From assembly GCF_000146505.1 (NCBI RefSeq), contig NC_017448.1, positions 330,001 to 362,000 of the forward strand: a DNA stretch of 32,000 nt, written 5' to 3'. This document shows, in pieces, positions 7,649 to 28,926 of this stretch. This DNA comes from Fibrobacter succinogenes subsp. succinogenes S85 (GTDB lineage Bacteria > Fibrobacterota > Fibrobacteria > Fibrobacterales > Fibrobacteraceae). Positions within the stretch are counted from its first letter, which is position 1, and each line of letters begins with the position of its first letter. The notes beneath the pieces are model-generated. The model was not told where the DNA came from. It saw only the letters and a list, made by a program, of their open reading frames with translations, and did not search any database. Position numbers and translations under genes: made by a program.

Positions 7649-8545
7649 CTATTCCTTTTTGAAATCTTTTTCAATTTGCGCAAGGTCTTCGGCCCATTCG
7701 GTCTGGATTTTCTGCTTGAGCTTCTTGGCGAGCGAAGGAGCGCGGCCCTGCGTAGAGACGGTCACAGCAATGTTTTCGCCGAAGTCCATACGAGCAGGCA
7801 CAATAAAATCACCGTCGAGGTAATCGCAGGCGTTATTCACGAGGATGCGGCGAGCGCGAGCATCGTTAGAAACTTGAGCATTGACTGCGGGCTGGTCAGT
7901 ACAAATGAAGACCATGAAAACGCAACGCAAATCCAGAGGTTCGTACGGGCGCTGTTTTAATGTGATAGAAGACGGCTCGTCAGCCTTGAGCGTTTCAAAT
8001 TCAGGGTCGATTTGCGGAGCGACAACAGTAATATGAGCACCGGTCGGGATAAGCGTTTTCACCTTGCGCAGAGCAATGCGGCCACCGCCCACCACAAGCA
8101 CGTTACGTCCTTCAAGATTCAACTCGATGGAGAAGAGGTTTGATGTTTTAGACGAAAGACGAGAGACGAGAGACTCTGAAGGCTTTTTTTCGTCTAACTG
8201 CGCATTGCGAATACCGCACACAACCATGCTCGAGAATTCTTTCCAATCGCCAAGGCAAGGCAAAAGCGTAATCGGGATTTGCGGGAATTCTTCCTGCAAT
8301 TTTGCAACAACACGCGGCACGTCATTCTTTGTATGCTGACCGTTCAACAGCAAATACGGCAGAAGCGTCACCGATTCCACATCTTCGCGCAAAAGCGTAC
8401 GGAGGTCGTTTTCCAAATCCAACAAACTCGTACTTGCGACGCGCGTACCCGGCAAATCATGATGCAAGCGGTCAAGGATTTCTTCAAATCCTTTGTACGC
8501 CCCCGGCAAAATGCAATGGTGAGCGATGATAAGAATAGCTTTCAT
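7649..8545 (-). CDS. fusion of CbiX/SirB-type chelatase (N-terminal) with precorrin-2 dehydrogenase / sirohydrochlorin ferrochelatase SirC-CysG(N)-type (C-terminal)
   Basis: The N-terminal ~115 aa is CbiX-like (LLPYLLLNGQHTKNDVP). The C-terminal part is SirC/Met8-like (GRNVLVVGGGRIALRKVKTLIPTGAHITVVAP ... VNNACDYLDGDFIVPA ... VSTQGRAPSLAKKLK). The linker LDEKKPSESLVSRLSSK is encoded by the repeat at 8148-8197. The start overlaps the upstream stop (TAATG). Confidence 0.8.
   Translation of the reverse strand: MKAILIIAHHCILPGAYKGFEEILDRLHHDLPGTRVASTSLLDLENDLRTLLREDVESVTLLPYLLLNGQHTKNDVPRVVAKLQEEFPQIPITLLPCLGDWKEFSSMVVCGIRNAQLDEKKPSESLVSRLSSKTSNLFSIELNLEGRNVLVVGGGRIALRKVKTLIPTGAHITVVAPQIDPEFETLKADEPSSITLKQRPYEPLDLRCVFMVFICTDQPAVNAQVSNDARARRILVNNACDYLDGDFIVPARMDFGENIAVTVSTQGRAPSLAKKLKQKIQTEWAEDLAQIEKDFKKE
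8148..8197 (+). repeat. heptamer-tract element copy 1 with 10-bp terminal inverted repeats
   Basis: The sequence is TTA GACGAAA GACGAGA GACGAGA GAC tctgaaggcttt TTTCGTCTAA. TTAGACGAAA at 8148-8157 is the exact reverse complement of 8188-8197. Confidence 0.75.
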
Positions 8546-10122
8546 TAAGCATTCTCCCCCATCGTGTAATATTCCACGATTTTTTTGACGAGCGAATCCA
8601 TCGTTGTTTCGTCGGAGGTGACAGTTTCAAAGCCATGCTTTTTCGCGGAGGCTTCAGTCATGCGACCTATGCAGAAACTTAGACGAGAGACGAAAGACGA
8701 GAGACTTGATATTTGCGCAAAATTCTCAACAGCGCTAGAACTGGCGAAGACGACTGCATCAGCAGAGGCAATAGCTTCACGTTTCCAATCCGGGAGTTCA
8801 GCAATCGGCAGTGTTTCGTAAACGATCCAACGTGTTGCTTTCGGTAAGAGTTTGAGCAAAGTATCGTCTGCAAGATTGCCTTGCAAAAGAAGAATACGAG
8901 ATTCGTCGTCAACCACTTCGCGCAACAACAAACCTAGTCCTTCGCCGGTGTGATCTTTAGGAACGTAATCGCAACGGATGCCGTATTCAAGCAACTTCTT
9001 TTCGGTAATCTTTCCGACACTTGCAATTTTCTTGCCGGCAAGCTCGCGTACGTCATACTCCGCAGTGAACAACTGCTCGAAGAAGCTTTCAACACCATTC
9101 GTGCTCGTGAAAGCAAGAATATCAAAGTCTTTAAGGTCTTCGAAATCGGCTAGATCGGCTAGTTCAGCAGTATCATATTCATAAGAATTGGCGATGCAGG
9201 AAGGGAGTTCGGCATGACAATAAGGGAGAACATTCCGTGTCTCAATCATCGGAGTTTCGATGACTTCGGCACCGAGGGCTGTCAGTCGAGCGGTAATCCC
9301 GCTAGATTGTTTTGCGGCACGCGTTACAACCAAACGCTTACCCGAAAGCGGCAAATTCTTTTTCCACGCAAGAGTCTTGCCAAGTTCAACCACGCCACCC
9401 ATAATCGTAATTGCGGGTGCCGTCACATTTTCACGGACAATGGTCTCGCCCGCTGTTTCAAGCGTTGCCATAACGGTACGCTGGTTCGGGGTTGTACCTT
9501 TTTCAATAAATGCAAGCGGAGTCTTCGGATCTTTGCCACACTCGATTAAACGACGTGCGATAAAGTCCATATTGGCAATGCCCATCAAAAAGATGAGCGT
9601 TCCTTGGCTCTTTGCAAGATTTTCAAAGTCTAAAGAAAGCGAATCACCAGCCTCGGCTTTTTCATGCCCTGTGATGATATGGAAACTTGTTGCAATTCCA
9701 CGATGACTCACGGGAATGCCCGCATAGGCAGGCACAGCTATAGCAGACGTCACGCCCGGCACAACTTCAAATTCGACGCCTGCATCGACAAGCTCCAAAG
9801 CCTCTTCGCCACCACGACCGAACACAAACGGGTCGCCGCCCTTCAAACGAGCTACGGTCGCGCCCGGCATTTCAACGGCAAATTTTACCAGGAGTTTATT
9901 AATTTCGGACTGTTTCACCTTGTGGTGCGTCGGCATTTTGCCCACATCCACCATCTTTGCTTTCGGATTACATAACGAGAGCACGCCCGGTGAAACCAAA
10001 CGATCGTAAACCACAACATCGGCTTTTTCAAGAATTGACTTTCCGCGCACGGTTAAAAGCCCAGGATCGCCAGGACCCGCGCCAATCAAATAAACTTTAC
10101 CAAAATGATTCGAATTTTCCAT
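8545..10122 (-). CDS. cobA-hemD: uroporphyrinogen-III C-methyltransferase (SUMT) fused to uroporphyrinogen-III synthase
   Basis: The N-terminal SUMT domain has VYLIGAGPGDPGLLTVRG, GGDPFVFGRGGEE and VPGVTSAIA. The C-terminal ~250 aa is HemD-like. I place the start at ATG 10122 (MENSNHFGKVYL). The track's start at 10374 overlaps the divergent deaminase gene and adds non-homologous sequence. Confidence 0.9.
   Translation of the reverse strand: MENSNHFGKVYLIGAGPGDPGLLTVRGKSILEKADVVVYDRLVSPGVLSLCNPKAKMVDVGKMPTHHKVKQSEINKLLVKFAVEMPGATVARLKGGDPFVFGRGGEEALELVDAGVEFEVVPGVTSAIAVPAYAGIPVSHRGIATSFHIITGHEKAEAGDSLSLDFENLAKSQGTLIFLMGIANMDFIARRLIECGKDPKTPLAFIEKGTTPNQRTVMATLETAGETIVRENVTAPAITIMGGVVELGKTLAWKKNLPLSGKRLVVTRAAKQSSGITARLTALGAEVIETPMIETRNVLPYCHAELPSCIANSYEYDTAELADLADFEDLKDFDILAFTSTNGVESFFEQLFTAEYDVRELAGKKIASVGKITEKKLLEYGIRCDYVPKDHTGEGLGLLLREVVDDESRILLLQGNLADDTLLKLLPKATRWIVYETLPIAELPDWKREAIASADAVVFASSSAVENFAQISSLSSFVSRLSFCIGRMTEASAKKHGFETVTSDETTMDSLVKKIVEYYTMGENA
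8679..8705 (+). repeat. heptamer-tract element copy 2 (27 nt, in frame inside the HemD domain)
   Basis: The sequence is TTA GACGAGA GACGAAA GACGAGA GAC. It is read on the minus strand as ..SSLSSFVSRLS.. between ENFAQI and FCIGRMTEASAKKHGF. Confidence 0.75.
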
Positions 10123-10128
10123 CGAAAC

Positions 10129-10136
10129 CAAATTTA
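10129..10136 (-). promoter_or_regulatory. TAAATTTG (TAnnTTTG) box 6 nt upstream of the cobA-hemD ATG
   Basis: The minus strand reads tttcTAAATTTGgtttcgATG. There is no Shine-Dalgarno sequence between the box and the start. Confidence 0.4.
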
Positions 10137-10176
10137 GAAAAACTTCGCCATTAAAATTTTGCCTATATTTTTTAGC

Positions 10177-10734
10177 ATGAATAGTTCTAGAGCAAAGCTT
10201 CGCGACGAAGTCTATACGCAGATGATGTGTGCCCAGGCACGCCTTTCCAAAGACCAAAATACCCAAATGGGTGCCGTTCTTGTGAGCGCCGACGGGCGCG
10301 TTATCAGCACGGGTTACAACGGCGCTCCCGCTGGATTTGACGACGAGACCGTTCCGTACACGCGCGAAAAGCAACTCCTCGCCTACGATTTGCTAGATGC
10401 CGACTCGGGCGAGCTTTTAAGCCACCACGAATTCGAGGCGAACAAGTATCCGTTCATGGTTCACGCCGAGATCAACGCACTTCACTACGCCCGCGGAAAA
10501 GTTCCTCCAGGTTCCAAGCTCTACGTGATTGGATTCCCGTGCGAACGTTGCTCTTTGGACATCAGCCTTTCAGGCGTTGCCGAAGTTTTCGTGACCAAGG
10601 ACGATTACGATCCGAAGTCCACGTTGAACAACAACCGCGACACGGCTTACTACATGTTCGCACAAGCTGGAATCATCGTAACGCTTTGCGGCAAACGAAT
10701 CAAACCCGTTGTATCGAAGCCTGAAAAGAAATAA
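10177..10734 (+). CDS. dCMP deaminase / ComEB-type cytidine-deoxycytidylate deaminase
   Basis: It has the zinc motifs HAEINAL and PCERC and an N-terminal LSKDQNTQMGAVLV motif. I place the start at ATG 10177 (MNSSRAKL). The track ORF starts at TTG 10159. Confidence 0.85.
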   Translation: MNSSRAKLRDEVYTQMMCAQARLSKDQNTQMGAVLVSADGRVISTGYNGAPAGFDDETVPYTREKQLLAYDLLDADSGELLSHHEFEANKYPFMVHAEINALHYARGKVPPGSKLYVIGFPCERCSLDISLSGVAEVFVTKDDYDPKSTLNNNRDTAYYMFAQAGIIVTLCGKRIKPVVSKPEKK

Positions 10735-10783
10735 CGTATAGTTTGCCATGTCGCTACGCGACTCGCAATGACGAAAATGTTAG

Positions 10784-10818
10784 AGCCCGCTCATTCAAAA
10801 TGCGCGGGATATTTTTTT
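10784..10818 (+). terminator. rho-independent terminator after the dCMP deaminase gene
   Basis: AGCCCGCTCATT caa AATGCGCGGGAT pairs at 10 of 12 positions and is followed by T7 at 10812-10818. Confidence 0.55.
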
Positions 10819-10830
10819 GCGATACAAGAA

Positions 10831-10860
10831 GGCGATTCCCAAACGGAGTCGGGAATGACA
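10831..10860 (+). repeat. REP-like hairpin+AATGAC element, copy 2, in the convergent gap between deaminase and hemC
   Basis: The sequence is GGCGATTCCCaaacggagtcGGGAATGACA. A related unit, GTCGCtacGCGACtcgcAATGACG, lies at 10751-10773. Confidence 0.6.
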
Positions 10861-10867
10861 GTGTAAG

Positions 10868-11923
10868 TTACAATTGTTTTTGAATTGCACAGGCGAGTTC
10901 AATGCCCAAGTTCTTGGATTGCTGAACGCAATCCTCCGAGTTCAAATCAACGTTTCCGGCGACTTCTGCACGGAGCAGTTTTTCTGATTTTTCGTCCCAG
11001 TAAATGCCGCGAATTTTCAAAGTCTGCGCAATTCTATTAGCATTCTCTTCGAGTGCGCCACAAGTGCCGCGATTTTCAATACCATCTTCGCAAACAAATT
11101 CTGCGAAGCTTGCCACTGGAAATTGGCAGCCTGCGTTAAGCGCTTTTAAATAAGCCATTTCAGCAGAAGCAATGCAATATGTCGCGACATCATTCACGCG
11201 AGCGAGAATCTGCGCAAGGTCCGCACGACCTGTGACGCGCGATTCTTGAACAGTTGCATCATTCAACGTTTCAATTGCAAGGATTCCCTGACCACTTGCG
11301 GGGAGCATCTGTTCAGTGCTAAAGTATTCCGTCACCTGGTCAGCAAGCCCCATACGCTTAAGGCCCGCCGCCGCAAGCACAACGCCATCAAGTTCCGCAA
11401 GCTTGCCTATACGAGTCTGGATGTTTCCGCGAATCGGCACATATTCCAAATCCGGGCGGAGCGCTTTCAGCTGCACCACACGGCGAATACTTCCCGTACC
11501 GACACGAGCGCCCGCAGGCAAATCCATAAAGCGAATTCCAGCCGAACCACCACGCGAAAGGAATGCATCTCGCGGGTCTTCGCGTTTCAAGACTGCAGCA
11601 AGCTTGAACTGCGGCAGCACTTCAGCAGGCATATCCTTCAAACTGTGAATCGCTATATCGGCACGACCTTCGAGGAGCGCAATTTCCAGTTCCTTGATGA
11701 ACACGCCCTTGCCACCAAAGCTCGCCAACGACTTATCCAAACGGCGGTCGCCTTCGGTTGTCATGGAGACAAGTTCATAAGTCAGAGAATCGCGGGCATT
11801 ATTAGAATCGGCGGCATTCCCAATAACAGAATTAGCAGCGACAATAGCATCTGCCACCATCGTCGTCTGGGCCAAAGCCAAAGCGCTCTTGCGCGTTGCG
11901 ATACGTAATTTCAAGTCACTCAC
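10868..11923 (-). CDS. hemC: hydroxymethylbilane synthase (porphobilinogen deaminase)
   Basis: 351 aa with LRIATRKSALALAQT, TTEGD, SLKDMP, VGTGSIRR, IRGNIQTR and the cofactor Cys context (LNAGCQFPVA). It uses a GTG start with GGAGG upstream. Confidence 0.95.
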   Translation of the reverse strand: MSDLKLRIATRKSALALAQTTMVADAIVAANSVIGNAADSNNARDSLTYELVSMTTEGDRRLDKSLASFGGKGVFIKELEIALLEGRADIAIHSLKDMPAEVLPQFKLAAVLKREDPRDAFLSRGGSAGIRFMDLPAGARVGTGSIRRVVQLKALRPDLEYVPIRGNIQTRIGKLAELDGVVLAAAGLKRMGLADQVTEYFSTEQMLPASGQGILAIETLNDATVQESRVTGRADLAQILARVNDVATYCIASAEMAYLKALNAGCQFPVASFAEFVCEDGIENRGTCGALEENANRIAQTLKIRGIYWDEKSEKLLRAEVAGNVDLNSEDCVQQSKNLGIELACAIQKQL

Positions 11924-11935
11924 AGCAAGCCTCCT

Positions 11936-13189
11936 CTAATTTCTAGGAGATTTTGAATCCAAGCACTTCAGGAAAACCTGCACATCTTCAGGAGAATTTT
12001 CGGCTTTGACTTTATACAAAAAGTCATTTGCCATTTTCTTCGCAAAGCGTTCGTACATCATCTGGATGCGATGGCGGTCATCTTCCGAAAGCTCGGGCAT
12101 GGAGCGCAACAACTTTTCAGATTCTTCATTTGCCGTCGTGAGCATTTTCTCAGCATGCAAATGAATTTGCTTAGAGACCTCATCCATGCGGTTCCAATGC
12201 AAGAATTCATCAAGACCTTCTTTCAAGATTTTCTGAGCCGCATCAAATTCAATCATGCGCAAACGGCGATTTTCAGAAACGATTTTTTCAAGGTCATCAA
12301 CGCAAACGTATTCAACGCCCGGAAGTTCACCAATAGAAGCTTCAGCATTGCGCGGATTCGCGAGGTCAACGACAAGGCGCTTTGATGGGACATCGATGGA
12401 ATCTGCAACCTGAATAGCCTTAACAAATTCATCTTTCGTGACAATCGGTTCCTGACAAGCGCTGCAGAGAATAACGACATCGCACTTGCCAAGGACTTCG
12501 TAGCGGTCTTCGAATTTCACAGGAGTAAGCACATCCGCAAATTTTTCAGCATTTGCAAAAGTCTTGCTGCTTGCAAAAATCTTGGTCGTATTTTCTTGTA
12601 CATACTTGAGCATCAGCGATCCCATCTCGCCAAGCCCCACGATATACACAGTACGATTTTCAAGATCGTCAAAAGTCTTCTGCACTTGCTTCATCGCCAA
12701 GAACGGAATGTTGCAACTGAGCTTGCTCAAGTTCGTCTCGGTCTTGATGCGCTTCGTCGTATGAATCGCACTCTGAAAAAGCTTGTTCAGCGTATTACCC
12801 GTTGCATTCAGCTGGTGCGCCGTTTCGTACGCGCGGCCAATCTGGTGCAAAATCTGATCCTCACCCATGGCGACAGAATCAAGCCCGGCACACACGTTCA
12901 TCACATGATGCGCAACATCGTCACCCGACTTAAAATAAAAGAACTTCGCAAAATCATCGTAGTCTTGACGGGCAAGTCCACACACATAACGAACGAGTTC
13001 ACCATCAGAGATTTCGCGGTCACTCGCCACATAGACTTCCGTGCGATTGCACGTTGCCAAAATCAAAAGTTCATCAAACGGAGAATGCATCAACGCCTCG
13101 GTCTTTACATCCATCGGGATATAAAACTTTTCGCGAATCGCGATTTCAGCCACCTTGTGGCTCATGCCTGCCATGTAAATTTTGCGCAT
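11936..13189 (-). CDS. hemA: glutamyl-tRNA reductase
   Basis: 417 aa with GMSHKVAEIAIREKF, the catalytic Cys context (LATCNRTEVY), GEDQIL and the NADPH site (IVGLGEMG). Confidence 0.95.
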   Translation of the reverse strand: MRKIYMAGMSHKVAEIAIREKFYIPMDVKTEALMHSPFDELLILATCNRTEVYVASDREISDGELVRYVCGLARQDYDDFAKFFYFKSGDDVAHHVMNVCAGLDSVAMGEDQILHQIGRAYETAHQLNATGNTLNKLFQSAIHTTKRIKTETNLSKLSCNIPFLAMKQVQKTFDDLENRTVYIVGLGEMGSLMLKYVQENTTKIFASSKTFANAEKFADVLTPVKFEDRYEVLGKCDVVILCSACQEPIVTKDEFVKAIQVADSIDVPSKRLVVDLANPRNAEASIGELPGVEYVCVDDLEKIVSENRRLRMIEFDAAQKILKEGLDEFLHWNRMDEVSKQIHLHAEKMLTTANEESEKLLRSMPELSEDDRHRIQMMYERFAKKMANDFLYKVKAENSPEDVQVFLKCLDSKSPRN

Positions 13190-13193
13190 AACC

Positions 13194-13201
13194 CAAAGAT
13201 A
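13194..13201 (-). promoter_or_regulatory. TATCTTTG (TAnnTTTG) box 4 nt upstream of the hemA ATG
   Basis: The minus strand reads tttttTTTGcgtagtccaatcttttcTATCTTTGggttATG. A TTTG lies 17 nt upstream of the box, and there is no SD. Confidence 0.4.
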
Positions 13202-13213
13202 GAAAAGATTGGA

Positions 13214-13528
13214 CTACGCAAAAAATCTAAAGCTCGTTTTCTTGAGTTCCTTGAGCGAATGGAGAACGACGTATTCCGGATTATCAAGCAAAGCCACGGA
13301 TTCCTTGATATAACCGTCCAATTCTTCGGGAGTCTGAGCATGCATCATTGCATACAAGTTGTACGGAAAATTTTCAAAAGACGGACGCTCGTAACAATGC
13401 GACACGTAATGTTTTTTTGCAAGTAGAGAACCCGCTCTTTCCGAATTTGCGAGCACACTTTCGTCTTTGCACTTCGTGCCAAGACCTGTCGGCTCAGCTA
13501 TGGGGGTATGCAAGCATCCCCGCAGCAT
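13214..13528 (-). CDS. ahbB: siroheme decarboxylase AhbB-like, C-terminal half only, frame-shifted relative to the upstream half (split gene or pseudogene)
   Basis: ...VLANSERAGSLLAKKHYVSHCYERPSFENFPYNLYAMMHAQTPEE...LKELKKTSFRFF matches the C-terminal ligand-binding domain of NirD/L/G/H-AhbA/B proteins. The N-terminal HTH half lies in ORF 13498..14403 in another frame. Confidence 0.6.
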   Translation of the reverse strand: MLRGCLHTPIAEPTGLGTKCKDESVLANSERAGSLLAKKHYVSHCYERPSFENFPYNLYAMMHAQTPEELDGYIKESVALLDNPEYVVLHSLKELKKTSFRFFA

Positions 13529-14403
13529 TCGCCTCTTTCGTCTTTCGTCTTTCGTCTCTCATCTAAACTAAAGCAGACCATCGCATTGCATGGGAAACCC
13601 GCATCTTGATGACGGAGGATTGCACCAAAGCGACGCATGCGTTTGGCGGCAAGATCCTCGCGAAGTTCATCGCAAGAAACGCCCCAGTCCTTAAACGGAG
13701 TGAGCGTATGCGGAATGTCGTCACAAGCGATGTGGATTCGGGACTTGTCGGAGTCAGTGAGTTTTCCCAAGAAATTACTGGATTCTTCCAACCTTCGGTT
13801 GTCAGAAAGACGCGGGACTTGGTCCTCAGAATGACGCAAAGCCGGGGCACTCTCGCCTCTTTCGTCTTTCGTCTTTCGTCTCTCGTCTAATGACATCACC
13901 GTATTGATTTTATACTTCTTTGTGGCGGTGAGGACATGGACATCGTGCAAATCCGTTTGCGCACACACGCGGTCAACAACCGTCTGGATTGCGGATTCAT
14001 TTTCGGCAATGACCGTAAACCAAACATTGTATTCGTGACTGCGGATGTAATTATGCGTAATCGCGGGTTCGCTCATCACGACTGTAGCGAACTTTTCCAT
14101 CGGCGTTTGCGAATGCGGTTCTGCAGAAAAATCAAGCGACAAAGCAGGTACCTTCCCTGCACAAAGCCTTGAAATAAAGCCGAGTTTCTTGGAATCGTAC
14201 ACGCCACCGATACGGCGAATCACGCCGGACACGCACATTTTCTCAACTTCATCAAAAACTTCTTGTTCCGAAACATTCAACATTTCCGCAAGCGCCTTAT
14301 ACGGGCGTTCCACCAACGGAAAGCCGTCTTGAATAATCGCGAGAAGTTTTTGACTCAGCATTTGCGGCACATCGCAAGGGGCGTTACAGCCCGATTTCTT
14401 CAT
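13498..14403 (-). CDS. ahbA: siroheme decarboxylase AhbA-like domain fused by read-through to the N-terminal half of an AhbB-like domain
   Basis: Residues ~16-170 (LLAIIQDGFPLVERPYKALAEMLNVSEQEV...GVIRRIGGVYDSKKLGF...ITHNYIRSHEYNVWFTVIA...TATKKYKIN) resemble AhbA/NirD-type proteins. A repeat-encoded SLDERRKTKDERGE follows, then a second HTH-type half (LTDSDKSRIHIACDDIPHTLTPF...MRRFGAILRHQDAGFPCNAMVCF). A second SLDERRKTKDERGE and an early stop end the ORF. Confidence 0.75.
   Translation of the reverse strand: MKKSGCNAPCDVPQMLSQKLLAIIQDGFPLVERPYKALAEMLNVSEQEVFDEVEKMCVSGVIRRIGGVYDSKKLGFISRLCAGKVPALSLDFSAEPHSQTPMEKFATVVMSEPAITHNYIRSHEYNVWFTVIAENESAIQTVVDRVCAQTDLHDVHVLTATKKYKINTVMSLDERRKTKDERGESAPALRHSEDQVPRLSDNRRLEESSNFLGKLTDSDKSRIHIACDDIPHTLTPFKDWGVSCDELREDLAAKRMRRFGAILRHQDAGFPCNAMVCFSLDERRKTKDERGECCGDACIPP
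13529..13566 (-). repeat. heptamer-tract element copy 3 (inside ahbB, at the frame break)
   Basis: The minus strand reads TTA GATGAGA GACGAAA GACGAAA GACGAAA GAGGCGA. It is 37/38 identical to copy 4, which lies 324 nt away in the same orientation. Confidence 0.8.
13853..13890 (-). repeat. heptamer-tract element copy 4 (ahbA-ahbB junction)
   Basis: The minus strand reads TTA GACGAGA GACGAAA GACGAAA GACGAAA GAGGCGA. It starts directly after the AhbA-like C-terminus ...KKYKINTVMS. Confidence 0.8.
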
Positions 14404-21189: not shown

Positions 21190-21222
21190 AAACAAAAACC
21201 GGGCGCTTTCGCGTCCGGCTTT
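21190..21222 (-). terminator. rho-independent terminator after rpmA
   Basis: The minus strand reads aaaaGCCGGACGC gaaa GCGCCCGGtttttgttttt, a stem with one mismatch. Confidence 0.65.
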
Positions 21223-21241
21223 TAAAAGCTAACCAAAGTTA

Positions 21242-21502
21242 TTAGGCTTCTTCAGGATAGACAGAGACCTTCTGGCGCTTTGCATCGAGGCGTTCGAACT
21301 TCACAGTGCCATCAACGAGGGAGAACAAGGTAAAGTCCTTGCCCATACCGACATTGTTGCCCTTGTGGAAGTGAGAACCGCGCTGACGAACGATGATGTT
21401 GCCAGCCTTGACGGTTTCGCCCGCATACTTCTTAACACCAAGGTACTTGGCGTTACTGTCGCGGCCGTTACGTACTGAACCTTGACCTTTCTTATGTGCC
21501 AT
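21242..21502 (-). CDS. rpmA: 50S ribosomal protein L27
   Basis: [24 protein letters not shown]...[21 protein letters not shown] is the canonical L27 sequence. AAGGAGG lies upstream. Confidence 0.97.
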
Positions 21503-21505
21503 GGA

Positions 21506-21991
21506 TTAAGCCTCCTTAGCCTTACGCAGAGAGTTCTTCTTGACCTTAGCCGGCTTCGGAAGTCCCTGAGCGATCTTTTCCTTGCGAGTGAGCGGCTTGT
21601 TCTGAACCTTCTGCTTAGCAAGGGCAGCCACGCGAGCGCGGTTGCGGGTAATAACTTGAGGGTCAACGACTGCAGATTCAGCGCCGGAGCGGAGTTCCGT
21701 GACGAGCACCTCGGTATAGCCCTGACGATGACCGTTACGACGTTCGTAACGGGTACGACGCTTCTTCTTGAACACGATAATCGTGTCTTCCTTGCCATGG
21801 GCGAGAACTTCGACCTTGACAGATGCGTCATTCAGGACAGGGGTGCCGACTTGCACTTCTTTTCCGGAGAAAAGAAGAACGGACTTGAGCTCCAGTTCAG
21901 AACCAACAGCTGCGTCGATCGTCGGGACCTTGTAGGCCTTGCCGAGTTCGACTTTATACTGGAAACCACCTGTTTCAACAATAGAATACAT
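21506..21991 (-). CDS. rplU: 50S ribosomal protein L21 with a ~55-aa basic C-terminal extension
   Basis: MYSIVETGGFQYKVELGKAYKV...KKKRRTRYERRNGHRQGYTEV is the L21 core. A Lys/Arg/Ala-rich tail runs to residue 161. Confidence 0.93.
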   Translation of the reverse strand: MYSIVETGGFQYKVELGKAYKVPTIDAAVGSELELKSVLLFSGKEVQVGTPVLNDASVKVEVLAHGKEDTIIVFKKKRRTRYERRNGHRQGYTEVLVTELRSGAESAVVDPQVITRNRARVAALAKQKVQNKPLTRKEKIAQGLPKPAKVKKNSLRKAKEA

Positions 21992-22025
21992 TTTTGTAAT
22001 CCTTTTTAGGTTGCTATTGGAGTCC

Positions 22026-22033
22026 CAAATTTA
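22026..22033 (-). promoter_or_regulatory. TAAATTTG (TAnnTTTG) box upstream of rplU, giving a leader of about 34 nt
   Basis: The minus strand reads ttacTAAATTTGggactccaatagcaacctaaaaaggattacaaaaATG. Confidence 0.4.
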
Positions 22034-22551
22034 GTAATAAAGCACAAAAAATCAAAGGGGATTAAGGGTAAAAATGAGGAAAATTGGCTAAAAAAGCAAG
22101 AATTCATAGACAAAAAGGCAATAACAGCCGTTTTATTTTCACAAAAAGCGTCAAACCGGGCACTCCAGTTCAAAATCATCAGCACTTTTTAAGTTTTTCG
22201 CCTCACCCACCCCGTCCAAACGCACGCGCAACTTTTTCAAAAAAAGCACGCATGTGCAACCAAAAAGTTCGCACGTCCCCACCGTATATAATGAACATAA
22301 ATTCAGAATCATTTTCATTACTATTTTATTACAAACAAAGAAACAAAACTTTATATGATACTAAGATGATACAAATTAATACATTTATCCAAAAGCATCT
22401 TACTTTTTGACCAATTTATTTTCGCAATACTACAAAAATAAAAGTTTCGTGTAAGTTAATTCCTTTAATTTATTTTTATCATTTACGCCCGCTAACACAA
22501 AGTTAGTTTAAACAAAACAAACAAAATAACCTTTACACATAAGGAGGATGC

Positions 22552-24312
22552 ATGAAACATCTATCTATGTTTCTAATGTCATGCTTAGCAATTTCAACAA
22601 ACGCTGCAACATACAACGCTCAAGGCAAAGCAATCAATAGCAAAGACGCCCAAAATCCAGGCATCGTAGTATACGAAAAAACAAAAGTTATAAACCAAAA
22701 TAAAAAAACAAATCACAACATCTTAGCAAAAACAAATTCAAACGACAGAGTTACAAAATCATACGCAATCTACAATTCAGACGAAAGCATTTATTACATG
22801 GATGGATACAAGAAATCGTTCAAAGCCTTTTTCGACACCTATGTGAATCCACGTGAAGAACGAGACGCCCCGAGAAACAATTACCAGCCACTCAACCTAT
22901 CAAACAACGCAGCACGATACAGAAGCAATAACGGCGACGAATGCAAAGTAGTCGCAGGAACTCTACCAACTAACAAACATTTCTACAAGCAAAACGATCG
23001 TCAAATGCTTTTAGATTACGTGACGGGAACATCTTTCGGCGTAAGCATCTACGACAATTACGACAAAACTAGTTTTACCTGCAATTCCACAGGAAACCAC
23101 CTACACCTAAGCTTATGTTTGGGAAGTCTAGGTTCGGGAATCAACATCTACAATGTTGTCGGCGACAAAAAAATAGACATAACAAAGCAAAGTTGCAAAA
23201 ATGAAACCCAATCCAATCAATACGCTCTACGCGACTACAAATTAGGAATAGACCATTTTTTTGCAGACAAGCTCGTGTCTGCAATCGCACCTTACGCCAC
23301 AAGGTACACAATTGATGAGGGTGATGCAAGAAAACAAGGTAAATTTGCAGCACATCCTCAGAATCCATACACGCTCGACATGCATATAGGCAACACAATC
23401 GCCACATCATCAAAGAACGTCGTCACCTATAACGAAGAATCGGCTTATTTGGACGATTACATATACAATAATCGCGTGATTGAATTCGTTCCTTACACAG
23501 AAAACGGAACAAAAACCGGAGCTGGCATCGCAATGAACGCAATAAGTGTAGGCGGAATTGAGCAAATCTACTATGAAAATGGCACACAAAAAGGTCTTTT
23601 CGTAAACAAAGTTAACGTACCCCGTTTACCATACGCAGCAGGTTACGCAAAACCTGAAATATACCACTTGGGCAACATGTATTTCAAATACGACAAACAA
23701 GTTATCGAATATGGTCCCCAAAACGCTCTTGCACAACACGTTAGAGGTTATTCAGACAACTGGGGAGCATCATCTCTTGCTGCAGCCATGACGGCAGTCC
23801 TTCTTTCAAAACAACCATTCTATAAATGGCATCCAGAAGTAGTGAAAGCACTTTGGCTTACAGCCTATAGTGAAGAGCTACCCAATTTGTACTACAACAG
23901 TAATAAAGTACTCGTCCAAGGAAAGCATATATCAACTATACAGGAATTGATGTCAAAAAACGTATCTCGTTATTGGTACGGAAACAACGATGATTTCTTC
24001 AAAAACGAAACAGAGACTTTCGTCGCTAGCGTAGAACCAGGAAAGAAATACGCCGCAGCAATCGCATGGCTAGTACGTGGAGACTACGCTTTGAACGAAT
24101 CAGAAGTATCATCAAATTATACTTTAACGATAAAAGATAGTAAGACGGGAAAAATACTGAACACACCTGAAAATTCCGTTGCAACCTATCGATTTGCGGA
24201 ACTTATCATTCCTGCTGGAGTTACACAACTTAAATTTGAAATCAAACGTATCAAAAACACCGGAGACAGAATCATCCTCGGATTCAACTTGCATAAAGTT
24301 TCAAGCAATTAA
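22552..24312 (+). CDS. secreted protein, very divergent subtilase (S8)-like fold candidate with a C-terminal beta-sandwich
   Basis: It has a signal peptide (MKHLSMFLMSCLAISTNA) and AAGGAGG upstream. Order-conserved weak matches to S8 motifs are NAISVGGIE (~VGA), KPEIYHLGN (~PDxxAPG), GASSLAAAMTAVLLSKQP (~GTSMAAPHVAG) and HPEVVKALWLTA. The tail YAAAIAWLVRGDY...YTLTIKDSKTGKIL resembles the TLxWxD...LDLxV module. This rests on pattern recognition only, and the catalytic residues are unverified. Confidence 0.4.
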   Translation: MKHLSMFLMSCLAISTNAATYNAQGKAINSKDAQNPGIVVYEKTKVINQNKKTNHNILAKTNSNDRVTKSYAIYNSDESIYYMDGYKKSFKAFFDTYVNPREERDAPRNNYQPLNLSNNAARYRSNNGDECKVVAGTLPTNKHFYKQNDRQMLLDYVTGTSFGVSIYDNYDKTSFTCNSTGNHLHLSLCLGSLGSGINIYNVVGDKKIDITKQSCKNETQSNQYALRDYKLGIDHFFADKLVSAIAPYATRYTIDEGDARKQGKFAAHPQNPYTLDMHIGNTIATSSKNVVTYNEESAYLDDYIYNNRVIEFVPYTENGTKTGAGIAMNAISVGGIEQIYYENGTQKGLFVNKVNVPRLPYAAGYAKPEIYHLGNMYFKYDKQVIEYGPQNALAQHVRGYSDNWGASSLAAAMTAVLLSKQPFYKWHPEVVKALWLTAYSEELPNLYYNSNKVLVQGKHISTIQELMSKNVSRYWYGNNDDFFKNETETFVASVEPGKKYAAAIAWLVRGDYALNESEVSSNYTLTIKDSKTGKILNTPENSVATYRFAELIIPAGVTQLKFEIKRIKNTGDRIILGFNLHKVSSN

Positions 24313-24374
24313 AAAACACCCTGCATAGGGACACAGATTTTCAAATATTTATTTGACTATCGAATAGAATCTCA

Positions 24375-24405
24375 GAGTCGTTCTTTATAGAACGGCTCTT
24401 TTTTC
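24375..24405 (+). terminator. rho-independent terminator after the subtilase-like gene
   Basis: GAGTCGTTC tttata GAACGGCTC, with one G-U pair, followed by T6-7. Confidence 0.8.
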
Positions 24406-24617
24406 ATCGCAAGCAAATCACAAACAAGATAAACAACTTTTAAACCAAATCGGGAATGATTTCACAAAAGAATTTTATTGCGACAGGGGTTTTAGGGGCG
24501 GAGCCCTTAGGCGAAGGGGTGATGGAGGGTTCGACAGGCTCACCAACCTTTTCTATGGCATTGCCTGTCAAAACAGAAATCAGGGGAAGGCTTTCCCCTT
24601 CAAGTGGGCTAATAACA

Positions 24618-24646
24618 GGAGATTCCCGATCAAGTCGGAAATGACA
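24618..24646 (+). repeat. REP-like hairpin+AATGAC element, copy 3
   Basis: GGAGATTCCCGAtcaagTCGGAAATGACA, a stem with one mismatch. It sits at the end of a 180-nt repeat-like, G-rich stretch upstream of the GH2 gene. Confidence 0.55.
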
Positions 24647-24696
24647 GCATCGTGTTTTTACTATCTTTACTTCGGAATTTTATAAAGGATCCCCTA

Positions 24697-27528
24697 ATGA
24701 GCAAAATTATCAGCCTTGATGGCGATTGGCAGATGATCTGGGACACGGAAGACACCGGCATCTCCAATCGTTGGTATGCAACGTATCCTGAAAAAACACA
24801 GACTGTTAGCGTTCCCCACATCTGGGAAAGAGCTTTTGACAAGCTTTTGATGGCCCAGGACTGCGCATTCTATTTCAAGAGATTCACGATTGACGACGAA
24901 AAGCAGGTCACAAAGCGCATTTTCCTCCGCTTTGAAAAGATCGCAACACACGCCACCATCTGGCTTAACGGTAAACTTTTGGGCGACCACTTTGGCGCTT
25001 ACACGTCCTTTGTCATTGAAACTCAGAAGGCAATCAAGCTCGGCGAAGAAAACATTCTCTGCATCCGCGTTGCAAACATGGGTGCAACGAACAGCCGCAT
25101 CGACTTCGGTCGCGAAAGCAAGGAAGGCGCAAACGACCGCTACGCCCACCCGGGAGAAATGCCGGTTGGCCTCCCCTGGTCGCAGTATCCGTATGGCGGT
25201 ATCTGCGGTCACGTGGACTTGATTCTCGGCAACGCCGCATTCATTTCTGACATTCACGTCGAACCGGACATGGACCAGGAACGCGTTTCTGTCGAAGCAT
25301 TCTTCAACAACCCGCGTGGTTACCAGTCCCGCCTCCGCATCCTCATGAAGAACCCGAACGGCGACGTTTACGAATTCTTCAAGGACATCAAGCTCGAAAA
25401 GGAAAACGCCACGCAAAAGTTCTTGCTTGGCATCAAGGACTGGAAGAAGGACAAGTGCGTCTGGAGTCCGGAACGTCCGAACCTGTTTGCCATCGAAATG
25501 CAGCTCGAAATCAAGGGCGCCAAGGGCAAGGCTCCGGAATACACCTTCCCTGTCGTGAAGACTTTCGGCTTCCGCAAGTTCGACTGCCTCAAGGGTGACT
25601 ACTACATCAACGACTCCATCGTGAAGCTCATGGGCGTGAGCTACAACCAGCAGTGGAGCGAAGGCGGCCTCTGGACAGACCAGAACCCGGCTCTCGAAAA
25701 GGACTTGAACGCCGTGAAGGCAGCAGGCTTCAACGTCATCCGTTCTTGCGGCGCTCCGCTCAGCAGCACGGCTCTCGACATCTGCGACAAGATTGGTTTG
25801 TTTGTGTTCCAGGAATTCCCGATCCACACGATGCGTTCTACCGCACAGGGTCTCGAAATCACGAAGAAGCTCATCAACGACATGGTGCGTGACCAGCACA
25901 ACCATCCGTGCATCGCCGCCTGGATTCTCGGTTCCGAAAACGGAACATTCATGCTCCAGAACGGTAACAAGCTCTTGAACGCCATTAGCCCGATCGACAC
26001 CTGCCGCCCGGCTATCAGCAACTTCAACAGTATCTACCTCGACAACGAAGCAAACTTCCACAAGGATACGGGTAAGATTATCCCGGTTTCCATCGACCGT
26101 ATTTCGCAGTACGCCACGATGCGCGTGAACCCGCGTTTAAACCCGAGTGCCGCTTACACGCACTACCTCGCCCACATGCTGGACAAGGAAGACGAAGAAC
26201 TCATGGTGCCGGATACGGGTCTTGGAGACAGCCACTTCCAGGATGAAGAAGAACCGATTTTGAACGATATCGAAAACAAGGTTTTGGTGACGCTCAAGAA
26301 CAATACGCTCTTCCCGAAGCGCGCAACCACCATCGCCGGTCCTCGCAGCATCAAGAGCCAGAAGGCGATCAAGAACGAATTCAAGTCTGTGGAAACGTTC
26401 GTCGACGATAGCAAGCTCTCCATTTGGCCGAACTTTGAATCGTTCAACGCCGATGTTTACCGCATCGCCCTCAAGAGCAAGTACGACCAGATTACGGCAT
26501 TCCAGAGCAACCCGCAGATTTCTGGTTTCTTCCTCGACCAGTGGGCCGACAACGGCACCGACTTTAGCGGCCTTAACGACGAAAACAGAAAGTCCAAGGG
26601 CGTCCAGAATTTTGCTCGTGAAATCACGACTCCGAGCCGCGTGCTCATCAGCGAACTTGAACACGTTGCCACACCGCAGAGCGAAGTCAGCTTCCAGCTC
26701 ACGCTTTTGAACAACAGCCGTTTGGAAGATGTGGAAATCGAAGTTTCGCTCCTCGACGCTAAGGACAAAGTCCTCAACACGCAGAAGGTCATGCCGGAAG
26801 AACCTGCCGAAAAGAAGACTCTTACGCAGCTTGGCATTTGCACGTTGATGGCTCCGCGCGCTACCGGTTTGTACAAGATTAAGCTCACGCTCAAGGATTG
26901 CGGCAAGGAAATCCATTCTAGCTACGAAGACTTGATCGTGATTGAACAGGCCGACGTGAAGGACGCCATGAGCAAGGTTTGCTTCTTGGATAACTATGAC
27001 GAATCGAGCGATGTGCTCGCCGCTCTCGACGGTTCCGAACAAATTATCTTCACTGCAAACTTGAGTTCTTGGCCAGATGAAATCTTGGAAAAGATTATCG
27101 ATGTCACGAAGAACGGTGGCAAGACTTTGTTGCTCTCCGATATGACGACTGAAGATATCGACCTCTTGAACCAGAGCCACAACTTCGAAAACAAGATCGA
27201 AGCCCACTGGACAACGGGTGCAAACGAATTCAGCTTGCACTACTTGCCGAAGGATTCTCCGCTCCTCGCTGTGTTCGGTGGCAACGGCGTTCTCGACCAC
27301 AACTCTGCATCGGCTATGCCGGGCATTTCGTTGAACGAGCTCGCTGGCGCTAAGGTCTATGCACGTTCCGTGACGCTCAAGGATGGCGAAATCAAGACGG
27401 GTGTGGACCTGCAGCTCGTGCCGTTTGGCAAGGGTCAGATCATGTTCAACCAGTTCAGCGTGATTGAAGGCTTGGAAACGAACGCCCTTTCGGATGCTCT
27501 GTTCACGGCAATCGTGAACTTGCTGTAA
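24697..27528 (+). CDS. glycoside hydrolase family 2 (beta-galactosidase/beta-mannosidase-like), apparently cytoplasmic
   Basis: It has the GH2 sugar-binding N-terminus (LDGDWQM...VPHIWE...FYFKRFTI...RIFLRFEKIATHATIWLNGKLLGDHFGAYTSF), a TIM barrel with NHPCIAAWILGSENG (acid/base NE-type motif) and no signal peptide. I place the start at ATG 24697, which has AAAGGA upstream. The track's GTG 24652 start lies inside the repeat. Confidence 0.85.
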   Translation: MSKIISLDGDWQMIWDTEDTGISNRWYATYPEKTQTVSVPHIWERAFDKLLMAQDCAFYFKRFTIDDEKQVTKRIFLRFEKIATHATIWLNGKLLGDHFGAYTSFVIETQKAIKLGEENILCIRVANMGATNSRIDFGRESKEGANDRYAHPGEMPVGLPWSQYPYGGICGHVDLILGNAAFISDIHVEPDMDQERVSVEAFFNNPRGYQSRLRILMKNPNGDVYEFFKDIKLEKENATQKFLLGIKDWKKDKCVWSPERPNLFAIEMQLEIKGAKGKAPEYTFPVVKTFGFRKFDCLKGDYYINDSIVKLMGVSYNQQWSEGGLWTDQNPALEKDLNAVKAAGFNVIRSCGAPLSSTALDICDKIGLFVFQEFPIHTMRSTAQGLEITKKLINDMVRDQHNHPCIAAWILGSENGTFMLQNGNKLLNAISPIDTCRPAISNFNSIYLDNEANFHKDTGKIIPVSIDRISQYATMRVNPRLNPSAAYTHYLAHMLDKEDEELMVPDTGLGDSHFQDEEEPILNDIENKVLVTLKNNTLFPKRATTIAGPRSIKSQKAIKNEFKSVETFVDDSKLSIWPNFESFNADVYRIALKSKYDQITAFQSNPQISGFFLDQWADNGTDFSGLNDENRKSKGVQNFAREITTPSRVLISELEHVATPQSEVSFQLTLLNNSRLEDVEIEVSLLDAKDKVLNTQKVMPEEPAEKKTLTQLGICTLMAPRATGLYKIKLTLKDCGKEIHSSYEDLIVIEQADVKDAMSKVCFLDNYDESSDVLAALDGSEQIIFTANLSSWPDEILEKIIDVTKNGGKTLLLSDMTTEDIDLLNQSHNFENKIEAHWTTGANEFSLHYLPKDSPLLAVFGGNGVLDHNSASAMPGISLNELAGAKVYARSVTLKDGEIKTGVDLQLVPFGKGQIMFNQFSVIEGLETNALSDALFTAIVNLL

Positions 27529-27562
27529 TCCAGAATCGGCATAGTTCAAACGCAATTACAAG

Positions 27563-27589
27563 AGTCCCGCCCTGGTGCGGGACTTTTTC
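27563..27589 (+). terminator. rho-independent terminator after the GH2 gene
   Basis: AGTCCCGC cctggt GCGGGACT followed by TTTTT. Confidence 0.85.
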
Positions 27590-27595
27590 GTTTTC

Positions 27596-27603
27596 TATAT
27601 TTG
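27596..27603 (+). promoter_or_regulatory. TATATTTG (TAnnTTTG) box 5 nt upstream of the proA ATG
   Basis: The sequence reads ttttcTATATTTGctcttATG. It follows the GH2 terminator directly and there is no SD. Confidence 0.4.
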
Positions 27604-27608
27604 CTCTT

Positions 27609-28880
27609 ATGACACAGAATAACGTTAATTTGGAAAAATACTCTGACGAGCTCGCCAACAACGCAAAGAACGCGAGCAAGAAAATTCGTACATTGAGCGC
27701 TGAAAAGCGCGCAGCCGTGCTCGCACGTGTTGCAGAAATCCTCCGTGCAAAGAAGCCGGAAATTCTCGCCGCCAACAAGATTGACCTCGAAGCAGCCGCC
27801 GGCAAGCTCGACGATTCCAAGATGGATCGCCTGACTTTGAACGATGCCCGCATCGAATCCATGGCCAAGGGTGCCGAAGAAATCGCCGCATTTACCGACC
27901 CGCTTGGCCGCGTTCTTGAATCTCGTGAACTCAAGAACGGCATCAAGATTAGCCGTGTCGCTGTGCCGATAGGTTCTGTGTTCTTTATTTTTGAAAGCCG
28001 CCCGAACGTGACGATTGACGGCGCTTGCCTTTGCTTTAAGGCGGGCAATGCCGTGATTCTCCGTGGCGGCAAGGAATCGCTAAACTCTGCTAAGTGCCTC
28101 GCCGGAATTTTCCACCAGGCTCTTGAAGAAAACGGCGTCGACAAGGATGCCGTGCAGCTCGTGACCGAAACGAGCCATGACCTCGTGGGCATGCTCTTGC
28201 AGCGTAACGATTGCCTCGACCTCGTGATTCCCCGCGGTGGCGAACGCTTGATCCGCGCCGTCGTAGAACAGAGCAAGATTCCTGTCATCAAGCACTTCAA
28301 CGGCATCTGCCATGTGTACGTGGACAAGTCCGCCGACATGGAAAAGGCAGTGAACATTCTCATCAACGCCAAGACGCAGCGCACGTGTGTGTGCAACGCC
28401 ATGGAATGCGTGATTATCGACCGCCACATTGATGATGCAAACGTCAAGAAGCTCATTGATTGCCTCGCCGATCGCGGTGTGGAACTCTTTGGCAACAAGG
28501 ATGCCCAATCGCACGACAGCCGCATCAAGGACATCGGCGATGATAGCAACTACCATCACGAATACCTCGCCCTCAAGGCAAGCGTCAAGTTCGTCGATAA
28601 CGTCGAAGAAGCCTGCGACCACATCGAAAAGAACAGCAGCCGCCACACAGAAGCCGTTGTTGCAGAAGATGCAAGCGTTCAGGACTACTTTGTCGCAAAT
28701 GTCGATAGCAGCAGCGTCATGGTGAATGCCAGCACACGCTTTGCAGACGGTGGCGAATACGGTCTCGGTGCTGAAGTGGGCATTTCTACGGACAAGCTCC
28801 ATGCACGCGGCCCCATGGGCGTCGAAAGCCTCTGCAGCTACAAGTGGATTCTCCGTGGCAACGGACAGGTTCGCGGATAA
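27609..28880 (+). CDS. proA: gamma-glutamyl phosphate reductase
   Basis: 423 aa in the aldehyde-dehydrogenase-like ProA family, with VPIGSVFFIFESRPNVT, ILRGGKES, the catalytic Cys context (TQRTCVCNAMECV), HTEAVV, NASTRFADGGE and KLHARGPMG. Confidence 0.95.
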   Translation: MTQNNVNLEKYSDELANNAKNASKKIRTLSAEKRAAVLARVAEILRAKKPEILAANKIDLEAAAGKLDDSKMDRLTLNDARIESMAKGAEEIAAFTDPLGRVLESRELKNGIKISRVAVPIGSVFFIFESRPNVTIDGACLCFKAGNAVILRGGKESLNSAKCLAGIFHQALEENGVDKDAVQLVTETSHDLVGMLLQRNDCLDLVIPRGGERLIRAVVEQSKIPVIKHFNGICHVYVDKSADMEKAVNILINAKTQRTCVCNAMECVIIDRHIDDANVKKLIDCLADRGVELFGNKDAQSHDSRIKDIGDDSNYHHEYLALKASVKFVDNVEEACDHIEKNSSRHTEAVVAEDASVQDYFVANVDSSSVMVNASTRFADGGEYGLGAEVGISTDKLHARGPMGVESLCSYKWILRGNGQVRG

Positions 28881-28926
28881 TTAGACGAAAGAACGGCGCT
28901 TCGCGCCTACAGACGAGAGACGAAAG
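28881..28926 (+). repeat. heptamer-tract element copy 5 (intergenic, proA-hisI)
   Basis: TTA GACGAAA gaac GGCGC ttc GCGCC taca GACGAGA GACGAAA g ATG. It starts immediately after the proA TAA and ends at the hisI ATG. Confidence 0.7.

Follow-up and report, generated by a model that had tools for sequence, protein, structure and literature searches.

A probable REP/MITE-like family of GACGARA heptamer repeats, read in frame within haem genes of Fibrobacter

A stretch of 32,000 nucleotides (nt) from Fibrobacter succinogenes subsp. succinogenes S85 (contig NC_017448.1, positions 330,001 to 362,000 of the forward strand; here called the window) contains five short tracts of the tandem heptamer GACGARA, four of which lie inside reading frames of the haem pathway. 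[quoted passage not shown] A first-pass annotation of the window, made from the sequence alone, had offered two explanations. The first, a small REP/MITE-like element tolerated as linker or loop, is borne out by flanks recurring from locus to locus, by the turnover of the repeats at orthologous sites and by inserts that keep the reading frame. The second, an iteron-like binding array of a haem regulon, is not supported: at orthologous haem sites the tract is not conserved, and it is present in both orientations and at many unrelated loci.

With the probe GACGARAGACGARAGA, allowing up to two mismatches, 12 overlapping matches were obtained in the window, all of them at the five loci and with the coordinates and sequences first reported, where dinucleotide-preserving shuffles led to an expectation of 0.03. 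TRF independently returned four period-7 arrays at tract positions. A sixth tract locus was found in the window neither by looser probes nor by an nhmmer profile.

The most complete of the five is copy 5 (28881..28926, plus strand), an intact canonical module of 46 nt composed of TTAGACGAAAGAAC, the hairpin GGCGC-TTC-GCGCC (28895-28907) and TACAGACGAGAGACGAAAG. It occupies the entire spacer between the TAA of proA and the ATG of hisI, right up to the ATG, and is the top nhmmer match to the module profile in the window (E = 2.5e-12); 29 modules comparable to it were found at other Fibrobacter loci. The basic unit of the family is a run of GACGARA heptamers, modally four, that often starts with TTA and ends with GA or GAGGCGA. 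In the canonical form of about 46 nt (TTAGACGARAGAAC, a GC-rich hairpin of 5-6 bp, then CTACAGACGARAGACGARAGA) the run is split by the hairpin, which has a loop of 3-4 nt and is flanked by GAAC and CTACA; read on the opposite strand the module is (TCTYTCG)2-TCT-GTA(G)-hairpin-GTTCTYTCGTCTAA. The earlier statement that the tract is always led by TTA holds for the window (5/5) and fails for the family, where 21 of 63 Fibrobacter tracts have this prefix, ATA and AAA being the next commonest. The units often form inverted pairs 20-60 nt apart with the ends TTAGACGA...TCGTCTAA. Such terminal inverted repeats bound copy 1 of the window and the full composites at the loci L077, L142, L163 and L198 (loci of the comparison are labelled L plus number). 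The composites form long hairpins, that of L077 with a predicted folding energy of -39.4 kcal/mol (z = -2.6).

The hairpin is maintained by compensatory changes. Among 16 hairpin-type modules from different loci and assemblies (the subfamily with GCTCGCNNGCTCGC was left out) the stems differ, yet 98.8% of the cells are paired, and compensatory changes are seen in four of the five pairs. For covariation the score is 0.82 as compared with 0.19 in shuffles, none of 500 shuffles reached 0.82, and on sliding the partner the score falls to 0.02-0.15. After the stem 12 modules have CTACAG, three CTATAG and one CTGCAG, corresponding to GTAG, ATAG and GCAG on the other strand. The last G of the GTAG tag is the closing pair of the stem, and the tag is thus not fully unpaired.

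Copies 1 to 4 of the window are intragenic. Copy 1 (8148..8199, plus strand) lies in the linker between CbiX and SirC of a fused open reading frame (ORF) (7649..8545, minus strand), in which Pfam places CbiX at residues 18-104 and the NAD-binding domain of SirC at residues 142-251, with the tract peptide between them. It consists of a GA-strand tract (8148-8174), a spacer of 15 nt and a short inverted arm, TTTCGTCTAA, at 8190-8199, which matches the initial TTAGACGAAA; the earlier coordinates were correct for the tract and stopped short of the full element. Orthologues show that copy 1, with its 52 nt, derives by deletion from a composite with two arms and a length of about 115-125 nt. The host gene translates it antisense into LDEKKPSESLVSRLSSK. 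Copy 2 (8679..8705, plus strand) is a lone tract of three units; it lies in the CobA-HemD fusion ORF (8545..10374, minus strand), in a loop towards the C-terminal end of the HemD domain, where the Pfam match HEM4 spans it; its antisense peptide is SSLSSFVSRLS.

Copies 3 and 4 are both on the minus strand, in an ORF (13498..14403, minus strand) that joins AhbA to the N-terminal half of AhbB; the remaining, C-terminal half follows in another frame (13214..13528, minus strand). Copy 4 (13853..13890; TTA GACGAGA (GACGAAA)3 GAGGCGA) opens the linker between AhbA, which ends shortly before 13890, and AhbB. Copy 3 (13529..13566; TTA GATGAGA (GACGAAA)3 GAGGCGA) lies in the beta1-alpha1 loop of AhbB directly after NAMVCF; this loop joins the first strand of the C-terminal domain to its first helix. 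The two copies are identical at 37 of 38 positions and each gives the sense peptide SLDERRKTKDERGE. The peptides first quoted (SLVSRLSSK, SSLSSFVSRLS and, twice, SLDERRKTKDERGE; the tract peptide segments are LDERRKTKDERGE and SLVSRLSSK) were thus correct, and the placement at domain or gene junctions agrees with the Pfam domain positions.

At the DNA level the window itself is Fibrobacter-like, its nearest matches being Fibrobacter metagenome-assembled genomes. Beyond the window, a scan of one genome per species with (GACGARA)3GA returned at least 120 loci. Among the matches listed, about half were from Fibrobacter metagenome-assembled genomes (MAGs) and about twenty from Alistipes/Rikenellaceae; the remaining listed matches were scattered, mostly in GC-rich phyla with longer pure arrays devoid of the TTA/hairpin context. 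Each Fibrobacter MAG had at least several perfect tracts among the matches listed. In Fibrobacter the tract length is most often exactly four units, and the non-repetitive flanks TTA..GAAC-hairpin-CTACA.. are shared by unrelated loci across dozens of MAGs. Of 45 Fibrobacter tracts 21 are inside long stop-free spans and the others are intergenic. The tracts are found in both orientations and in all three reading phases, the copies within ORFs also in unrelated genes; relative to transcription two window tracts are antisense and three sense.

The heptamer also occurs in viruses. In one related phage/prophage family (about 41-48% GC) a (GACGARA)4-10 array of variable unit number occupies a conserved locus (..gatgagat[array]gacgacgatattaa..). 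It was observed in the viral contigs L201-L212 and in L112 (Vibrio sp.), its context has nothing in common with that of the Fibrobacter element, and it resembles a variable-number tandem repeat of phages. Carriage of the element by phages was considered and rejected: only 12 viral contigs contained the tract, mostly from one unrelated phage family and in a different context.

The history of the individual sites was followed in 80 related loci (55-91% identity), obtained in a metagenome scan with the AhbA-AhbB ORF, which together with two genome loci formed the comparison set. Five sites were compared: the CbiX|SirC linker, the CobA interdomain loop, the HemD loop, the AhbA|AhbB linker and the AhbB loop. 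Their contents vary from empty through GACGARA tracts, other heptamer tracts and REPs with a CGTC tag (CGTC-type REPs) to nested combinations, and the inserts measure between a few and over 300 nt. The orthologue alignment, proposed by the first-pass annotation as a search for empty sites, thus did reveal empty alleles. The signature of ordinary conserved coding sequence, the same peptides with divergence at synonymous sites, was not seen; orthologues have different repeats or none.

At the CbiX|SirC site (linker 60-123 nt) L077, L142, L163 and L198 have the full form, TTAGACGAAAGAAC-hairpin-CTACAGACGAAAGACGAAAGA, about 25 nt and (TCTCGTC)4TAA, and other orthologues have unrelated linkers of 60-78 nt. 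The HemD loop (33-153 nt) is repeat-free with 33 nt in L136, L188, L193 and L199, contains a tract as in window copy 2 in L121, and is a mosaic of 99-153 nt with CGTC-type REPs and other repeats in L142, L148, L077 and L183; all HemD alleles are in frame. The CobA loop after GHEK (18-282 nt) is empty in the window and has the canonical module in L163, L172, L142, L077 and L031. The AhbA|AhbB linker (54-240 nt) is repeat-free with 54 nt in the distant relatives L166, L186, L189, L191 and L196; in the close relatives L121-L125 and L127-L131 its tract contains a hairpin insert of 21 nt net (TGGTTCGGCAGGCTCACCAAC..), which is absent from the window, L126 and L132. In the AhbB loop the variation extends over about 240 nt, with empty alleles (NATNGG..., a segment of 69-72 nt) in L178, L179, L186, L189, L191 and L195, one unit in L177, four units in L164 and L184, and in other lineages different heptamer tracts, (ACAGTAG)n, (AATTCGG)n and (GTAGGAA)n. 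For copy 5 the corresponding comparison at proA-hisI yielded no usable orthologue, the upstream context of L087 being different.

Two loci are extreme. The CobA-HemD gene of L077 (2335-4308, minus strand) has an insert of 282 nt of purely stacked repeats in the interdomain linker of CobA plus three further inserts, and at L159 (11000-11320) the AhbB loop has 225 extra nt. On the structure of NirE (PDB 2ybq) the L077 CobA insert (87-94 residues) falls at one position between its two domains, residue 172|172. Essential enzymes apparently tolerate such extreme repeat inserts.

What these alleles have in common is their frame. In all 80 orthologues AhbA, AhbB-N and AhbB-C are in one frame, and over the five sites the 85 distinct classes of insert length are all multiples of three (3n) free of stop codons, with the window ahbB as sole exception. 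The strict 3n lengths speak for translation of the inserts, and on this ground their skipping by translational bypass or their excision was rejected. A stop-plus-ribosome-binding-site cassette (TAG, purine-rich leader, start) that would split AhbA, AhbB-N and AhbB-C was also discarded, TAG never being in frame. Nor did the element bring the genes together: distant relatives have fused AhbA-AhbB and CbiX-SirC with short repeat-free linkers, from which it follows that these fusions are independent of it. The first-pass annotation had argued that a period of 7 nt does not come from coding constraint, which is right; it should be added that three heptamers equal seven codons and that none of the six frames of the tract contains a stop codon, except at the terminal TTAG/CTAA. 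A loop or linker can accordingly accommodate this frame-neutral tract with unusual ease.

The exceptional window ahbB has a composite insert in common with L128, in which the copy 3 tract is followed by a nested element of some 60 nt and then by a tract remnant. In the window the nested element covers 13468-13528 (about 61 nt; minus strand, within 13454..13528) and contains a CCCCC run; the displaced remnant, AAGACGAAAGTGTG, follows at 13454-13467 (minus strand). The sole difference between the two loci is CCCCC (13502-13506, minus strand) in the window versus CCC in L128. In the window the ORF stops at 13498; what remains of AhbB is encoded in another frame, from an ATG at 13528. That four copies are read through as protein thus does not apply to the ahbB copy of the window, downstream of which the frame changes via CCCCC, and does apply in all 80 orthologues. 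Since CCCCC versus CCC is outside the tract, slippage of the heptamers was rejected as cause of the frame break. Judged from the sequence, the break could reflect an error of sequencing or assembly, or else a real mutation, which would make ahbB a pseudogene or split gene; we conjecture that translation might restart at ATG 13528, which has AGAGG upstream.

A related copy of the nested element stands beside a canonical module at an unrelated locus (L079, 7000-7100), and further relatives are in the CobA insert of L077 and the linker of L152. Beside Fibrobacter tracts this second element of about 60 nt has a hairpin around TGCTTGCA followed by AT(A/G)GC(C/T)GAGCCG, and a similar motif (..CTGCTTGCAGACTATGCCGAGGCG..) was observed after tracts in Alistipes/Rikenellaceae (L021, L029, L083, L095, L111). 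It may be a structured element that crosses phyla.

The sequence of events that we envisage is as follows. A copy would persist in a gene provided that its site, a linker or surface loop, is permissive and that the overall length is 3n, and would then be translated, in sense into charged (DERRETR)n-like segments and in antisense into segments rich in S, L, V and R. Other small repeats (nested hairpins, CGTC-type REPs, further heptamer tracts) could then land on the resident copy or recombine with it, and the copy could later decay by deletion. CbiX-SirC, CobA-HemD and AhbA-AhbB would gather repeats because of their unconstrained linkers and loops, and selection on copies within genes need enforce no more than the 3n length. 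Of this, the data show that the tracts form one family, that its hairpin covaries, that repeats come and go at orthologous sites, that the frame is strictly kept and that both orientations and all phases are used; that the family spreads by copying and that its copies are neutral or near-neutral we infer. For the copying two routes come to mind: the GTA(G)-hairpin suggests single-strand transposition of the HUH/RAYT type (RAYT for REP-associated tyrosine transposase), and the 37/38 identity of the two ahb copies together with the replacement-like alleles suggests templated insertion or gene conversion between tracts.

Several findings weigh against a dispersed REP/MITE-like family. Copies of one genome share the arms and not the spacer or hairpin sequence, unlike a recent MITE burst, and in a sizeable subfamily GCTCGCNNGCTCGC replaces the hairpin. 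At the AhbB, HemD and CobA sites there is no target-site duplication or flanking direct repeat, and filled and empty alleles differ there by replacement of the loop, not by clean insertion. A HUH...Y..NP motif was not found in 1.7 Mb of loci, well under 1% of the genomes concerned, nor was an ORF-bearing segment bounded by inverted tracts found in these limited loci, except where a host haem gene has an insert on either side. Of 48 tracts in 804 kb of orthologous loci, 46 belong to the three fused haem genes, and hemA, hemC and the radical-SAM gene have none. Finally, 12 of 63 Fibrobacter tracts are exactly 7-8 nt from a reverse-strand TAnnTTT[GA] box, as compared with 0.8% in controls.

The last two points, together with the compensatory changes in the hairpin and the exact fit of copy 5 between proA and hisI, ending at the ATG, speak for a functional cis element: a periodic array binding an oligomeric RNA- or DNA-binding protein, or a portable promoter-upstream (-33/UP) module, with the hairpin acting in RNA. 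TAnnTTT[GA] is the Bacteroidetes-type -7 box, and a start codon is often close by on that strand; the box-adjacent tracts are those of L005, L009, L016, L033, L037, L044, L050, L052, L072, L100, L103 and L115, the spacing being counted from the TTA end. Such a tract would cover roughly -15 to -45 of a divergent promoter, and some copies may have, or may have acquired, a promoter-related role. The NAG every 7 nt in the tract also recalls the UAG-N4 spacing of HutP sites, which is a lead only. As an explanation of the family as a whole we nevertheless consider a cis element unlikely. The orientation relative to transcription is inconsistent in the window and elsewhere, about half of the copies are inside ORFs, no Rfam family matched the window, and isolated tracts have no predicted structure. 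Unlike the array of a regulon or transcription factor, orthologous haem loci lack the tract, have other, unrelated repeats, or differ in number and orientation; the many lineages without the tract at haem sites make a haem-specific signal improbable. The concentration in haem genes is real. We attribute it to inheritance plus permissive sites; the different repeats found at the same few sites, and the 46 of 48 tracts in fusion genes, fit permissive sites that serve as nests for small repeats.

Less likely still are simple-sequence repeats made in place by polymerase slippage, with no copying between loci and only convergent similarity. Many unrelated heptamers form arrays in the same genomes, and period 7 is dominant: of the tandem arrays, 166 of 421 at the orthologous loci, 124 of 297 at other Fibrobacter loci and 80 of 160 at Alistipes loci (39-50%) have this period, as against 5-28 arrays each for periods 6 and 8. 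These arrays have a mode of four units and comprise dozens of different heptamers, e.g., AACCACT, AAGTAGG, ACAGTAG and AATTCCG in Fibrobacter and GGAAAAC, GAATGCA and CTCAACT in Alistipes, where intergenic mosaics chain different heptamer tracts head to tail. Slippage would also fit the variable unit number among orthologues (one in L177, four in L164 and L184) and the long pure arrays lacking the TTA/hairpin context in GC-rich phyla, and an unexplained excess of heptameric repeats in bacteria, with a mode of four units in Xanthomonas and no detailed study, is on record (PMC4692102). It does not account for the TTA prefix, GAAC-hairpin-CTACA, the GAGGCGA end and the adjoining nested elements that recur at unrelated loci, for the A/G alternation within tracts that copies have in common, or for an array length sharply modal at four and not broad. 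That the heptamers are arrays of REP tags (CGTC in TCTCGTC, GTAG in GTAGACA) was rejected, as GTAG occurs in 3/33 Fibrobacter and 3/25 Alistipes families other than GACGARA, where about 5% is expected.

Selection at the protein level for charged or flexible linkers, the DNA being ordinary coding sequence periodic by chance, has been largely refuted and is very improbable: the placement in linkers and loops, always in frame, would suit it, but the same DNA in all phases and both orientations yields unrelated peptides (DERRETR versus SLVSRLS), identical DNA is also intergenic, orthologues have no insert or unrelated ones, and it is the nucleotide pattern, not a set of synonymous codons, that is conserved. 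Hardly credible is a contingency locus in which gain or loss of 7-nt units switches haem genes on and off; such a unit does shift the frame and the window ahbB is out of frame, but that frameshift, the sole one, is +2 in a C-run outside the tract, no frame toggling by unit number is seen and all 80 orthologues are in frame at every site, and the tracts are short and imperfect and the genes encode housekeeping enzymes.

Among known systems the dispersed family is best classed with REP-like repeats and Rickettsia palindromic elements (RPEs) read in frame, here built on heptameric simple repeats. The literature searched contained no description of the tract sequence or of such repeats in Fibrobacter, in line with the first-pass annotation, which did not recognise a described element. 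GTAG-tagged REPs, REP dimers and REPINs (Bertels & Rainey 2011, PMC3116915; Di Nocera et al. 2013, PMC3733652) likewise have a short GC-rich hairpin, alternative complementary stems and a GTA(G) abutting the stem, and are dispersed, often as inverted pairs 20-100 bp apart and with some copies in frame in genes; intragenic in-frame REPs are documented (PMC3733652). Here, however, the stem reaches no more than 5-6 bp and is closed by a base pair that includes the G of the tag; conserved heptamer arms surround the hairpin, many copies consist of arms without a hairpin, and the spacers of the pairs are not conserved. A RAYT-like motif was not found in the 1.7 Mb of loci, well under 1% of the genomes concerned. 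Fibrobacterota are absent from the phyla covered by the GTAG-REP surveys (PMC3733652). With MITEs the element shares terminal inverted repeats; target-site duplications and clean empty sites were not found at the sites compared, nor was a related autonomous element with the same ends in the limited loci.

RPEs, as summarised in PMC10969869 and PMC3733652 (Ogata et al. 2000, 2002), are small palindromic repeats in frame in unrelated housekeeping genes, read through at fold-compatible positions and sometimes several per gene, as here. They differ in being about 100-150 bp long with a conserved family peptide; the present element has 30-46 nt of 7-nt units, is frame-neutral, is read in any phase and orientation and is mixed with other repeat families at the same sites. 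Unit length and composition clearly set RPEs apart from it, and a similarity in sequence is improbable. Tandem 7-nt units, an excess of period 7, a mode of four, inverted pairs and several heptamers per genome are features in common with the heptameric simple repeats of cyanobacteria (short tandemly repeated repetitive sequences, STRR) and the G-rich heptamers of Xanthomonas and Nostoc, as described in Rehm et al. 2015 (PMC4692102; Mrazek 2007 via PMC4692102). These simple repeats, in contrast, are described as intergenic and, in Xanthomonas and Nostoc, as forming G-quadruplexes, whereas GACGARA has no G-runs and is about half in ORFs. Also unlike heptameric simple repeats, the present element has defined non-repetitive ends and an embedded hairpin. 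Elhai et al. in 2008 reportedly described in Nostoc small dispersed repeats (SDR) of 21-27 nt that form hairpins and nest in other repeats; the similarity to the nested inserts of about 21 nt net is a lead only, sequence and host phylum being different.

CGTC REPs, which include dRS3 of Neisseria and RPE-4/6 of Rickettsia, have a CGTC tag, a stem starting with AT and a CCA tail (PMC3733652). The partner elements CGTCATYCTGAGCG..GAAGRATCCA and CGTCATTGCGAG..GCAATCC fit this tag, stem and tail and occur in frame in genes. They adjoin the heptamer tract, whose own reverse-strand CGTC, in contrast, has no stem after it. In the window two degenerate REP-like units with a CGTC tag (13778..13836, minus strand; CGTCATTCTGAGG... 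and CGTCTTTCTGAC...GAAGAATCCAG) make up the rest of the AhbA|AhbB linker, and intact CGTC-type copies are found in orthologues, e.g., CGTCATTCTGAGCGTAGCGAAGAATCCAG in L136.

The window genome is rich in several small repeat families. The spacer after hemC (10745-10870, minus strand) has the REP-like TGTCATTCCCGACTCCGTTTGGGAATCG and CGTCATTGCGAGTCGCGTAGCGACATGGCAA (CGTC type). A second intergenic region (24480-24650) has, at 24528-24645, GGTTCGACAGGCTCACCAACC, which as a 21-nt hairpin is nested in tracts at other loci, together with GGGGAAGGCTTTCCCC and a CGTC-type unit in reverse. An AT-rich repeat of period 15, TTTTACAAAATTTTA x 2.9, lies at 6661-6703 between the hemB ORF (start 7643, minus strand) and upstream ORFs. 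The CobA-HemD ORF, listed with 609 amino acids, begins at a TTG far upstream, and homology to SUMT starts from MENSNHFGKVYLIGAG (about 10120), where the true start of CobA-HemD probably is; its stop overlaps the start of cbiX-sirC at 8545.

In-frame colonisation of housekeeping genes by repeats is usually cast as a peculiarity of Rickettsia; here it is met in an unrelated gut and rumen lineage with much smaller elements, and in some relatives essential haem enzymes have up to 94 extra residues, all derived from repeats. For annotation this means that repeat DNA, not protein biology, is often behind the fused or "split" genes and the odd stretches of low complexity met with in Fibrobacter and Alistipes proteins, and for the quality control of MAGs that frameshifts near these repeats deserve checking. 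For protein evolution the tracts are a ready source of linkers, and for the question of heptameric over-representation the allelic series at orthologous sites provide natural before/after comparisons. Speculatively, and with odds that we put rather low, the four-unit tracts and the nested mini-hairpins could be the footprint of one DNA-level process, either an ultra-small class of mobile elements or a templated-insertion or repair activity, in the Fibrobacterota-Chlorobiota-Bacteroidota (FCB) group and perhaps in cyanobacteria and Xanthomonas. A single process of this kind would explain the heptameric excess and, through tracts that are stop-free and frame-neutral, would be a general generator of new linker and loop sequence; Fibrobacter, with filled, empty and nested alleles in essential enzymes, would then be the system in which to catch it.

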